A DNA stretch of 64,000 nucleotides from Escherichia phage vB_EcoM_JS09. Shown here piece after piece: positions 33,517-37,571 of the stretch. Numbering within the stretch: position 1 is the stretch's first letter; each line of letters opens with the position of its first letter. A program made the position numbers and the translations under genes. The stretch is taken from the sequence record NC_024124.2; one strand, written 5' to 3'. A model generated the notes under the pieces. That model did no database searches and was not told where the DNA came from. It worked only from the letters and a program-made list of their open reading frames with translations.

Positions 33517-34602
<1,086 letters not shown>

Positions 34603-34603
<1 letters not shown>

Positions 34604-35006: not shown

Positions 35007-35282
35007 ATGTTCCCAACTTATTCTGAAATTGTAAAGGTAGTCTTCAGTCAGATTATTGCTAATAATATGTTTGAAGTGCTTGATAATGCAGCCGAACTCA
35101 GAGTTCATGCTCAACTAACTCATGTACTCAATGCTTTGCTCCCAGACCAAGTAGATTCTATTGCTATTACTCTTCTCCCTGGGTCTGCGCACGTCATAGT
35201 GGTATTTGATCTTGATGGTGATTTAGTTATCCAGTGTGATATCAATTTCGGTACACAAAAAATTGAATGCAAAGCAATTTAA
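35007..35282 (+). CDS. hypothetical protein
   Basis: 91-aa ORF. Confidence 0.5.
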   Translation: MFPTYSEIVKVVFSQIIANNMFEVLDNAAELRVHAQLTHVLNALLPDQVDSIAITLLPGSAHVIVVFDLDGDLVIQCDINFGTQKIECKAI

Positions 35283-35285
35283 TGG

Positions 35286-35314
35286 TTTACAACATGGTGG
35301 AGTTGTGATACTAT
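35286..35314 (+). promoter_or_regulatory. early promoter with dyad symmetry around -10
   Basis: TTTACA-N17-TACTAT with TG; inverted repeat GGTGGAGTT (35296..35304) / AACTCTACC (35315..35323), 8 of 9 complementary. Confidence 0.55.
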
Positions 35315-35342: not shown

Positions 35343-35579
35343 ATGCTAAGTGAAAACCCAATTACAGTACACGAATTTCAGATTAAAGTAAAAGAATTTG
35401 CTCAAGCACTCATCAATAAAGTGTCTGAACGTTTCCAAGATGCAACATTACGAGTTATTCAAGAATCTCCACGTTCTTTTCTCATAATCGTTAATCCTAA
35501 AGATGGTGACCAAATTACTAATCTTAAATTAGGCAGTGACGGTCTTGTTGAAGCAACTCGAGTATATGGAACACTATAA
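35343..35579 (+). CDS. hypothetical protein
   Basis: 78-aa ORF, GAGGA SD, early promoter 35286..35314. Confidence 0.5.
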   Translation: MLSENPITVHEFQIKVKEFAQALINKVSERFQDATLRVIQESPRSFLIIVNPKDGDQITNLKLGSDGLVEATRVYGTL

Positions 35580-35699
35580 TGAGAGCTATCTCATTACTAT
35601 CGAGAATGGTCATAAATCTGAGCACTACCAACTTAGCCTGTCTAATCCGGTTAAAGGTATTGTTGAATCAGAATCTGTTTATATCTCCTAAGGATTGTT

Positions 35700-36692
35700 A
35701 TGTTACCTGTCATCAGAAAACTTATTTCTCCAAAAGAACTGGCTGAGATTATTCCTTTGTCGGAAGCTTACGCATCACAAGTGGCTTCTCATCGCGAACA
35801 AGTTAATTCGATTATGAACGGTGAAGACCCACGCAAACTTATTGTTGTAGGTCCTTGTTCAATTCATGACCCTATTGCTGCTGTTGAATACGGCAAACGT
35901 CTGGCTGAACTTCAAACTCGTCTTCCTAATGTTCTGTTAGTGATGCGCGTTTATTTTGAAAAGCCTCGAACTACCGTAGGTTGGAAAGGTCTTGTAAATG
36001 ATCCATATCTTGACGGAAGTTTTGATATGAACCACGGTCTTATAGTTGCACGAACATTGTGTCGTAAACTTCTACGTATAGGACTTCCATTAGCAACTGA
36101 AGTATTAGACCCATTCACGATTAAGTATCTTTCTGGTATTTTCTCATGGGTTGCTATTGGCGCCCGTACGACTGAAAGTCAGACACATCGTGAAATTGCT
36201 TCAGGTCTACCGATGTGCGTAGGCTTCAAGAACGCAACCAATGGTTCTATTAAAGTAGCTACAGACGCGATGTATAGTGCCGCCTGGCCTCATCGGTATA
36301 TGGGTATGGACGTCGATGGTACTGTAGGCATTGTTGAAGCTGAAGGTAATCAGAATACGCATATCGTATTGCGTGGCGGGACCAACGGCCCGAACTATCA
36401 TTCTTCTGATATTCAAGAAGCTTCTAACAAAGCAAGGGCAGTAGGTCTGAATCATTATGTAATGGTTGACTGTAGCCATGCAAACGCTGATGGACATTAT
36501 AGCAATCAAATTGGTATTGGTAAAAATTTAGCAGCTAATGATTTGGTCAAAGGAATTATGATAGAATCATTCCTACATGAAGGAAATCAAAAAATTTCCG
36601 ATAATATGTCCTATGGCGTTTCCGTTACCGATGCGTGCATCAGTTGGGAACAAACTAAAGAGCTGTTAACTTATATTAATAAGGTTCAATAA
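35700..36692 (+). CDS. 3-deoxy-D-arabino-heptulosonate 7-phosphate (DAHP) synthase, class I (AroG/AroF/AroH-like)
   Basis: 330-aa ORF with AAGGA SD; hallmark motifs shared with E. coli AroG: VVGPCSIHD, RVYFEKPRTTVGWKGL, WVAIGARTTESQ, HIVLRGG, ESFLHEGNQ, VTDACISWE; the metal-ligand positions (Cys, His, Glu, Asp) are all present. Confidence 0.85.
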   Translation: MLPVIRKLISPKELAEIIPLSEAYASQVASHREQVNSIMNGEDPRKLIVVGPCSIHDPIAAVEYGKRLAELQTRLPNVLLVMRVYFEKPRTTVGWKGLVNDPYLDGSFDMNHGLIVARTLCRKLLRIGLPLATEVLDPFTIKYLSGIFSWVAIGARTTESQTHREIASGLPMCVGFKNATNGSIKVATDAMYSAAWPHRYMGMDVDGTVGIVEAEGNQNTHIVLRGGTNGPNYHSSDIQEASNKARAVGLNHYVMVDCSHANADGHYSNQIGIGKNLAANDLVKGIMIESFLHEGNQKISDNMSYGVSVTDACISWEQTKELLTYINKVQ

Positions 36693-37273
36693 TGAAAGCT
36701 AGCACATACCTTCAGATTGCATATCTGATTTCTCAAGAATCAAAATGTTGTTCATGGAAAGTTGGCGCAGTCATTGAAAAAGATGGGCGCATTATTTCTA
36801 CTGGGTATAACGGTTCACCTGCAGGTGGCGTTAACTGTTGCGAACATGCATCTGAAAATGGTTGGTTGAAGAATAAACCAATCCCAGTCATCGTTGCTGG
36901 GCATAAAGAAGGCACTACAGCATTTGGACGGGCAGATAATTTTGTTTTGGCTAAAGAACATCGGGCCGCTCATAGTGCATGGTCTGCTAATAACGAAATC
37001 CATGCAGAATTGAATGCAATTTTGTTTGCAGCTCGTAAAGGTAATTCTATTGAAGGTGCTACGTTGTATACGACACTTTCTCCATGTCCTGATTGCACTA
37101 AAGCTATTACGCAGTCAGGTATTAAAAAGGTTGTATACGCAGAATTATATGACAGATCTCCTGAAAATTGGGCAGACATTCTTAAACAAGCTGGTATTGA
37201 AGTAATTCAGTACTCTCGTAATAATCTTCGTTCTCTGAATTGGGAACAAATCCGAAACTTTTGTGGTGAATAA
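36692..37273 (+). CDS. cd: dCMP deaminase
   Basis: 193-aa ORF (T4 Cd 193 aa); zinc-deaminase motifs HAELNAI and SPCPDCTKAI. Confidence 0.9.
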   Translation: MKASTYLQIAYLISQESKCCSWKVGAVIEKDGRIISTGYNGSPAGGVNCCEHASENGWLKNKPIPVIVAGHKEGTTAFGRADNFVLAKEHRAAHSAWSANNEIHAELNAILFAARKGNSIEGATLYTTLSPCPDCTKAITQSGIKKVVYAELYDRSPENWADILKQAGIEVIQYSRNNLRSLNWEQIRNFCGE

Positions 37274-37274
37274 T

Positions 37275-37571
37275 ATGATTTTAACCGAACAAGAAACTAT
37301 GGTTCTTCGTGAACGTATTAAAACTATTCTGTCTGTAGGCGTTCATTGTGTTGTATTTGAAAAGGCTAACGGTGAGGTACGCACTATGTTTGCTTCGCGC
37401 GATGAACTTGAAGTCAAATATGAAAATAACAATCCGGCAACAGAAGTTCGTTATGAACCTCGTGAATCAGTTCGAGCATTCGATACCAAGTTAGGTCAGT
37501 GGCGTTCTTTCCGCCTTGATAAAGTAATTTCGGTTGATGGTACTCCGGTGGAACGTTTGCTTCTTATGTAA
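37275..37571 (+). CDS. hypothetical protein
   Basis: First ATG after the cd stop (track start 37263 overlaps cd). Confidence 0.45.
   Translation: MILTEQETMVLRERIKTILSVGVHCVVFEKANGEVRTMFASRDELEVKYENNNPATEVRYEPRESVRAFDTKLGQWRSFRLDKVISVDGTPVERLLLM

Follow-up and report, generated by a model that had tools for sequence, protein, structure and literature searches.

An AroF-like DAHP synthase gene between pseT and cd of Escherichia phage vB_EcoM_JS09, with clade-specific changes at the predicted inhibitor site

The 64,000-nt stretch of Escherichia phage vB_EcoM_JS09 analysed here (sequence record NC_024124.2; the window) carries, between the T4-type genes pseT and cd, a gene for a 330-aa DAHP synthase (3-deoxy-7-phosphoheptulonate synthase; DAHPS). 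Related phage proteins form a single clade in which the inhibitor pocket known from the bacterial enzymes is systematically altered. What is established below is membership of the family, integrity of the active site, purifying selection, and pocket changes that are specific to the clade and lie at published resistance sites. Two features carry the argument (residue changes in AroG numbering):

35700..36692, + strand: DAHP synthase (3-deoxy-7-phosphoheptulonate synthase), type I-alpha, AroF-like, 330 aa; from profiles, alignment and a structural model
36102..36215, + strand: inhibitor-site/active-site segment VLDPFTIKYLSGIFSWVAIGARTTESQTHREIASGLPM, codons 135-172, with P150I, Q151K, D155G, L156I and S180P; from alignments and a conservation scan

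The ATG at 35700 is the earliest possible start after the upstream in-frame stop. The 330-aa translation contains RVYFEKPRTTVGWKGL, GPCSIHD, HIVLRGG, EGNQ and TDACISWE, every one of the AroG/AroF/AroH signature motifs quoted in a preliminary description of this DNA, and both the open reading frame (ORF) and the motif observation are confirmed, far beyond chance. The assignment made there to class I (type I-alpha) enzymes is borne out by Pfam DAHP_synth_1 (PF00793; E = 5.2e-75, 252.3 bits against a cutoff of 25.5), the NCBIfam aroFGH equivalog TIGR00034 (427.7 bits, cutoff 173.2) and the fold match described below. PHROG 5045 (phospho-2-dehydro-3-deoxyheptonate aldolase) matches residues 1-330 to profile positions 8-337 of 341 (E = 9.8e-182). 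Among subfamily models, the ORF passes the cutoff of the AroF-like NF009395/PRK12755 (454.5 bits, cutoff 343) and does not reach those of the AroG-specific NF006723 (363.6 < 568) or the AroH-specific NF009396 (386.5 < 463). Among solved structures E. coli AroF (6AGM, E = 1.6e-104) is the best match, followed by N. meningitidis DAH7PS and E. coli AroG, and identities to the E. coli K-12 isozymes are 51% (AroF, full length), 48% (AroG) and 44% (AroH). The residue at the Tyr/Phe selector position (AroG 211) is G202, matching the Gly of AroF and typical of Tyr-type enzymes, while AroG and AroH carry Ser there. The closest isozyme is thus AroF-like on selector residue, subfamily score and identity, and not AroG, with which the protein had first been compared.

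The metal ligands C53, H260, E289 and D311 correspond to AroG Cys61, His268, Glu302 and Asp326 and are invariant in all aligned phage and bacterial sequences; the alignment with AroG agrees with the earlier observation that the Cys/His/Glu/Asp positions are intact. The ligands of phosphoenolpyruvate (PEP) and erythrose-4-phosphate (E4P), R92, K97-P-R99-T100, G163-A164-R165, K186 and R234 (AroG numbering), are likewise all present and invariant. An AlphaFold2 model built on 47 homologues has a mean predicted local distance difference test score (pLDDT) of 93.6 and superimposes on 8E0U, 1GG1 and 4HSO, which include E. coli AroG and N. meningitidis DAH7PS, with a template modelling (TM) score of 0.96 and a root-mean-square deviation of 1.4 A. 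It shows the features of the type I-alpha TIM barrel, namely N-terminal helices (11-17 and 22-39) and a beta6a/6b hairpin (strands 198-203 and 209-214), and only the first 8-9 residues of the N-terminal extension are missing. Profiles, alignment and model agree that the product belongs genuinely to the type I-alpha DAHP synthases and that its catalytic site is intact. Both termini had been described as shortened relative to AroG by similar amounts. This holds for the N-terminus, which is 7-9 residues shorter than in AroH, AroG and AroF, but the C-terminus is only ~5 residues shorter (9 relative to AroF), and internal deletions of 5 and 3 residues account for much of the length difference.

Regulatory-site residues were compared in a 130-sequence alignment of the phage clade with ~98 bacterial relatives, two sets of about equal diversity (mean within-group identity 62% and 60%, respectively). 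The catalytic Cys is preceded by 48-52 residues in all members of the phage clade and by at least 58 in the bacterial relatives, and equivalents of AroG Asp6/Asp7 and AroF Asn8 are missing from the phage proteins. Over its full length, the protein has only seven positions at which the phage clade and the bacteria are fixed for different residues: P150I, Q151K, D155G, L156I, S180P, F209Y and T223A. Five of these (P150I, Q151K, D155G, S180P and F209Y) belong to a set of 14 positions that the literature links to the inhibitor site or to feedback resistance (hypergeometric P = 1.3e-6, indicative only). The canonical inhibitor residues P150, Q151, D155, S180 and F209 are replaced throughout the clade, and the phage states occur in none of the ~98 bacterial relatives; the early-branching metagenomic member P0022 keeps Pro150 and already has K151 and P180. 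Segment 135-172, which contains most of these changes, shows the highest conservation within the phage proteins (0.95-1.00, versus 0.77-0.96 in bacteria). The inhibitor pocket is therefore systematically altered in the phage clade, and no earlier description of this clade-wide remodelling was found in the literature searched.

P150L, S180F and F209A/S confer feedback resistance on E. coli AroG; the inhibitor main chain is bound by Q151/Q152 and S180/S181, and a D155 salt bridge stabilises the inhibitor site (PMC9529685). Asp6/Asp7 form part of the Phe site, and D6G-D7A and similar AroG variants are Phe-resistant (PMC6520568); because replacement of these residues gives resistance, the N-terminal truncation of the phage proteins also suggests it. 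The preliminary description had raised feedback insensitivity on the basis of the shortened N-terminus. The invariant pocket substitutions lend that idea independent and stronger support than truncation alone, as a prediction from sequence.

A distant DAHPS (locus L012, 3899-5062; 38% identity) is encoded by Aeromonas phage HJ05, which has a 79-kb genome and is not T4-like. It has Pro at the AroG-180 position, as in the phage clade, is otherwise different, and seems to have been acquired independently by this unrelated phage.

The phage DAHPS proteins group as one clade of 32 sequences in 100/100 neighbour-joining (NJ) bootstraps. The nearest bacterial proteins are only 50-55% identical and come from several phyla, enterobacterial AroF being no nearer to the phage clade than proteins of uncultured marine Gammaproteobacteria, Kiritimatiellota and Planctomycetota. 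The G+C content at third codon positions (GC3) is 0.29, like that of the phage neighbours, versus 0.51-0.57 in E. coli aroF, aroG and aroH. Recent capture from the host was rejected on these grounds: identity to AroF/G/H is 44-51%, bacteria of several phyla are equally close, and composition is phage-like. The NJ sister group (HJ05, P0120 and others) was considered as the donor lineage and is distrusted, given its long branches. A search of a representative library gave 6125 family matches at E<=1e-3, the phage clade being merged there into a 50% cluster. The ratio of nonsynonymous to synonymous substitution rates (dN/dS) between genera is 0.15-0.24, indicating purifying selection, and within Mosigvirus DAHPS is 98.9-99.8% identical at the nucleotide level, with more variation in pseT and cd. 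DAHPS is an old, maintained phage gene, neither a recent host capture nor a relic.

The window region is 94-98.6% identical to 138 Mosigvirus records and collinear with phage TU01 (species Mosigvirus JS09), with coordinates that correspond throughout; collinearity and identity place the phage in Mosigvirus (JS09-like), whereas Tequatrovirus had been implied at first. By tblastn, DAHPS homologues were found in 211 phage records, 138 at >=95% identity, 47 at 60-80% and 26 lower. In every DAHPS-bearing T4-like genus examined, and so in at least seven, the gene occupies the same slot between pseT and cd: Mosigvirus, Kanagawavirus (CIP9, PEi26), Marfavirus (P545), Winklervirus (X20), Kagamiyamavirus (EcS1), Bragavirus (PM2) and Gualtarvirus (PSTRCR_127). 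Two metagenomic clade members are likewise in T4-like contexts. In the T4 record the only ORFs separating pseT from cd are cd.1-cd.5, in agreement with the preliminary description, and RB69, the type Mosigvirus, lacks the gene. In Winklervirus X20 a homologue of T4 cd.1 follows DAHPS, which puts the ancestral position between cd.2 and cd.1. The idea that T4 cd.1 is a DAHPS remnant was rejected, as the two share no similarity and cd.1 persists downstream of DAHPS in X20.

The presence of the gene in phages is already known. Public records covering about 200 phage genomes annotate it as DAHP synthase, and the similar annotations expected in T4 relatives exist, in the form of 138 near-identical GenBank records and PHROG 5045. 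DAHPS of Klebsiella phage KLB31 has been put forward as a putative auxiliary metabolic gene (PMC11845039, 2025) and phiC120 provides an annotation-level mention (PMC8022965). A full-text literature search, mostly without subscription papers, found no functional study of any phage DAHPS, in line with the earlier statement that no function had been characterised; the mentions found were at annotation level only. Several public records call the protein a 'hypothetical protein'. A few other "phage" DAHPS matches, on a 13-kb Acinetobacter contig and in a 2.4-kb Salmonella record, resemble bacterial DNA.

On the + strand of the window, frd, td, nrdA, nrdB, denA, rnlA, alc, the spanin genes and pseT (33704-34603) are followed by four small ORFs resembling cd.5 to cd.2, then a 51-aa ORF, DAHPS, cd (36692-37273), 31.1, gene 31 and rIII. 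A host-type gene is thus located between the phage core genes pseT and cd in a Mosigvirus genome, the location expected of an auxiliary metabolic gene. The features bearing on its expression are:

35286..35314, + strand: promoter-like site, GTTTACA, 17-nt spacer, TGn-TACTAT; from a consensus scan, between the ORFs resembling cd.3 and cd.2
35690..35694, + strand: Shine-Dalgarno-like AAGGA, 5 nt before the DAHPS ATG; from the sequence, with a ribosome-binding site annotated at the same place in phage Mizar
36692..37273, + strand: dCMP deaminase (cd), translationally coupled neighbour of DAHPS; Pfam PF00383 (E = 1.5e-26) and PHROG 174

The DAHPS stop overlaps the cd start in TAATG (36690-36694). 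In the T4 record an early promoter, Pe133295, is annotated in the equivalent cd.3/cd.2 gap, and the site at 35286..35314 is probably the early promoter of the unit containing DAHPS. No late-promoter TATAAATA was found upstream of the gene. Early co-expression with cd is plausible, the timing being read from these signals.

Within DAHPS itself, a 100-aa antisense ORF (36207-36509, - strand) has no family match, and a sigma-70-like site (TTTACC-17-TG-TATAAT) lies on the - strand at 36524-36496. Promoter-like sites in the region number 16, with 15.7 expected by chance. Given this chance-level count and the lack of a family match, the antisense ORF and minus-strand promoter are probably spurious.

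Comparison with RB69 delimits DAHPS and its left flank as a cassette-like unit:

35579..36691, + strand: segment absent from RB69, 1,113 bp; from RB69 annotation and junction alignment
35536..35691, + strand: 51-aa ORF, left edge of the DAHPS cassette; from a DUF7320 match, alignment with CIP9 cd.2 and junction alignment versus RB69 and CIP9

RB69 cd.2 abuts cd, the stop of the one overlapping the start of the other (TAATGAAAGCTAGC...). The window has an RB69-type cd.2 (protein 96% identical) that ends in TAATGAGAGCTATC... and is followed by ~110 nt coding for the C-terminal part of a second cd.2, then DAHPS, then the true cd start TAATGAAAGCTAGC. The C-terminal half of the 51-aa ORF is this partial second copy (Pfam DUF7320, E = 1.3e-6, profile positions 43-76), which resembles the Kanagawavirus allele and not the resident one; BLASTP of the ORF against the resident cd.2 gave no alignment, and their kinship emerges solely from the DUF7320 profile and from comparison with the CIP9 allele. 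Imperfect direct repeats around the TAATG overlaps (35576-35598 and 36689-36711; 17/23 bases identical by eye) flank the segment. The cd.2 fragment, being of foreign type, favours the view that an RB69-like backbone received the cassette from another T4-like phage with DAHPS; the alternative is deletion in the RB69 line.

In other genera, homing-endonuclease ORFs are found next to pseT, DAHPS and cd or between these genes. One in Klebsiella phage P545 (L007, 4480-5049) has weak HNH/NUMOD3 matches, and others are annotated near DAHPS in Proteus phage PM2 (L009, 2106-2822) and Providencia phage PSTRCR_127 (L010, 1590-2306, SegD). Such enzymes could help to move the pseT-cd region between co-infecting phages.

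We consider it somewhat probable, from sequence, that the gene supplies an active DAHP synthase, insensitive to aromatic feedback and made early, that sustains shikimate flux during infection. The enzyme would be metal-dependent and would condense PEP and E4P to DAHP. Its pocket for Tyr, Phe or Trp appears to have been rebuilt: the acidic N-terminal contacts are gone, the residues that hold the inhibitor main chain are replaced (Q151K, S180P), and neighbouring pocket residues are also changed (P150I, D155G, F209Y). With the pocket so systematically altered, the enzyme probably escapes the host feedback brake and is most likely insensitive to aromatic amino acids. It would probably be made early, together with cd, from the T4-type early promoter, and could keep carbon flowing into the shikimate pathway while the host isozymes are inhibited and no longer resynthesised, later steps to chorismate being left to surviving host enzymes. 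The chorismate might then serve for aromatic amino acids for phage protein and for folate and quinone precursors. Removal of the feedback brake from an active DAHPS is the most economical reading of the pocket changes; catalytic activity, feedback insensitivity, early expression and a benefit to the phage are what we infer. The preliminary description had argued for a folate or nucleotide role from gene position. frd, td, nrdA, nrdB and cd do lie nearby, but the argument is weak because the pseT-cd interval is hypervariable, its small ORFs and homing endonucleases differing from phage to phage.

Several points weigh against this interpretation. The pocket residues are invariant across the phage clade and not drifting, a pattern that simple loss of the site would not predict, and the pocket could still bind something. 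The selector Gly, the AroF-type P148 and the beta6a/6b hairpin are all kept, and residual Tyr binding is possible. The literature list of 14 positions was compiled after the alignment was seen. RB69 and all Tequatroviruses manage without the gene, so that any benefit would be conditional. Of the seven steps leading to chorismate, the phage supplies the first only. For any clade member, a literature search mostly without subscription papers found neither an assay of the enzyme nor expression data nor a phage mutant.

The retained AroF features raise the alternative that the protein is an ordinary Tyr-regulated isozyme in which the pocket changes are tolerated variants, simply adding DAHPS capacity under feedback control. 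E. coli AroF is the closest characterised relative (51%; 6AGM, E = 1.6e-104), the PRK12755 cutoff is passed, Gly at AroG-211 and Pro at AroF-148 are retained, the regulatory hairpin and N-terminal helices are seen in the model, and a Lys in place of Gln151 could still bond a carboxylate. We nevertheless regard this as unlikely, as four independent inhibitor contacts are altered or missing together (the D6/D7 equivalents, Q151, S180 and P150), single changes at three such sites already abolish inhibition in the E. coli or C. glutamicum enzymes, and the phage pocket states are found in 0 of ~98 bacterial relatives.

Invariance of the altered residues can also be read as repurposing, the Tyr/Phe pocket having become a sensor of another small molecule that ties shikimate entry to a phage-relevant signal. 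A candidate class of ligand is an anionic non-amino compound, e.g. prephenate, chorismate, an arylpyruvate or a nucleotide. The remodelled residues and segment 135-172 are near-invariant across genera whose proteins share only 53-76% identity, and loss of the acidic N-terminal contacts for the ammonium group, with gain of a Lys, is compatible with such a change and no demonstration of it. However, the idea is pure inference, the segment also holds the active-site G163-A164-R165 and subunit-interface residues, perhaps enough to explain its conservation, and Pro at 180 may merely fill or stiffen the pocket. We give it a rather low probability, slightly below that of a Tyr-regulated isozyme.

It is improbable that the benefit lies in substrate use, the enzyme acting as an unregulated sink for PEP and/or E4P that reshapes central carbon metabolism, pentose-phosphate flux or activity of the phosphotransferase system (PTS). 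If the first step is unregulated, PEP and E4P would be drawn off regardless of downstream demand, and pentose-phosphate-pathway genes occur in other phages. Nothing in the present analysis supports this proposal, however; by our reasoning a drain on E4P would lower the pentose yield of the non-oxidative branch, and no other central-carbon gene is linked to DAHPS in the loci examined. An inactive relic or non-enzymatic protein is very hard to credit, for although RB69 and T4 show that phages in nature can do without the gene, all catalytic residues are kept in every clade member, dN/dS is 0.15-0.24, and DAHPS is among the best conserved genes of the region in Mosigviruses (98.9-99.8% nucleotide identity).

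With E. coli AroF the phage DAHPS has in common the type I-alpha fold, the metal and PEP/E4P ligands, the selector Gly and the AroF-148 Pro. It differs in an N-terminus 9 residues shorter with no Asn8 equivalent, a shorter C-terminus, the internal deletions of 5 and 3 residues, and pocket replacements at AroF Q152 (K), S181 (P), P151 (I), D156 (G) and the Phe equivalent to AroG F209 (Y). GC3 is 0.29 in the phage gene and 0.51 in aroF, and uncultured bacteria are as close as AroF or closer. The positions changed in resistant E. coli AroG variants (P150L, S180F, F209A/S, D6G-D7A and Q151 variants) are changed naturally in the phage clade, but the phage residues differ (I, K, P, Y and a deleted N-terminal segment), co-occur and have been fixed by natural selection, with an effect that is predicted. 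Among PHROG 5045 members the window copy is 98-99.8% identical to 138 GenBank records in the same slot, with nothing distinctive relative to JS09-type copies; this family is annotated by homology only, and an auxiliary metabolic role has been hypothesised (PMC11845039). As with other auxiliary metabolic genes of lytic phages, a host-type enzyme is found in a virulent phage, here in an early-gene region and coupled to cd. Unlike the nearby T4 nucleotide-precursor enzymes (cd, td, frd, nrdAB), DAHPS stands at the entry of an amino-acid and cofactor pathway, and it is accessory even within its own genus.

If this interpretation is correct, T4-like enterobacterial phages have long carried a naturally feedback-free gate enzyme of the shikimate pathway, and the entry step of aromatic, folate or quinone biosynthesis would be limiting during infection, a metabolic takeover of a kind little studied outside cyanophages. 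The protein would also offer a naturally optimised feedback-resistant DAHPS scaffold for engineering; in laboratory variants, S188F of C. glutamicum AroF among them, activity is often lost (PMC9529685). The JS09 group, with the gene, and RB69, without it, are close relatives differing by a clean 1.1-kb cassette and provide a ready-made test system. The prediction is clear and cheap to test, with some value for phage metabolism and metabolic engineering, although it describes no surprising new system.

Other differences were seen in neighbouring genes. The cd.3-like ORF (DUF7355; window 35007-35282, + strand) has ~71% nucleotide identity among Mosigvirus isolates, versus 95-100% for flanking genes, which looks like allele replacement in a small early gene. 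RB69 cd (L013, 6743-7252) is annotated as 169 aa, versus 193 aa in the window and T4, and beyond residue ~165 its product diverges or stops early; RB69 cd may have a frameshift, or its C-terminus may really be truncated. Apparent misannotations in public records include cd as 'ribD riboflavin biosynthesis protein' or 'tRNA-specific adenosine deaminase' and the WYL_2/31.1 protein (window 37263-37571) as 'tail fiber protein'. The pseT ORF starting from GTG at 33704 encodes 299 aa, with the full PHROG and the Pfam kinase domain matched from residue 1, while in TU01 and PTK a shorter protein starts at an internal ATG (window 33827).

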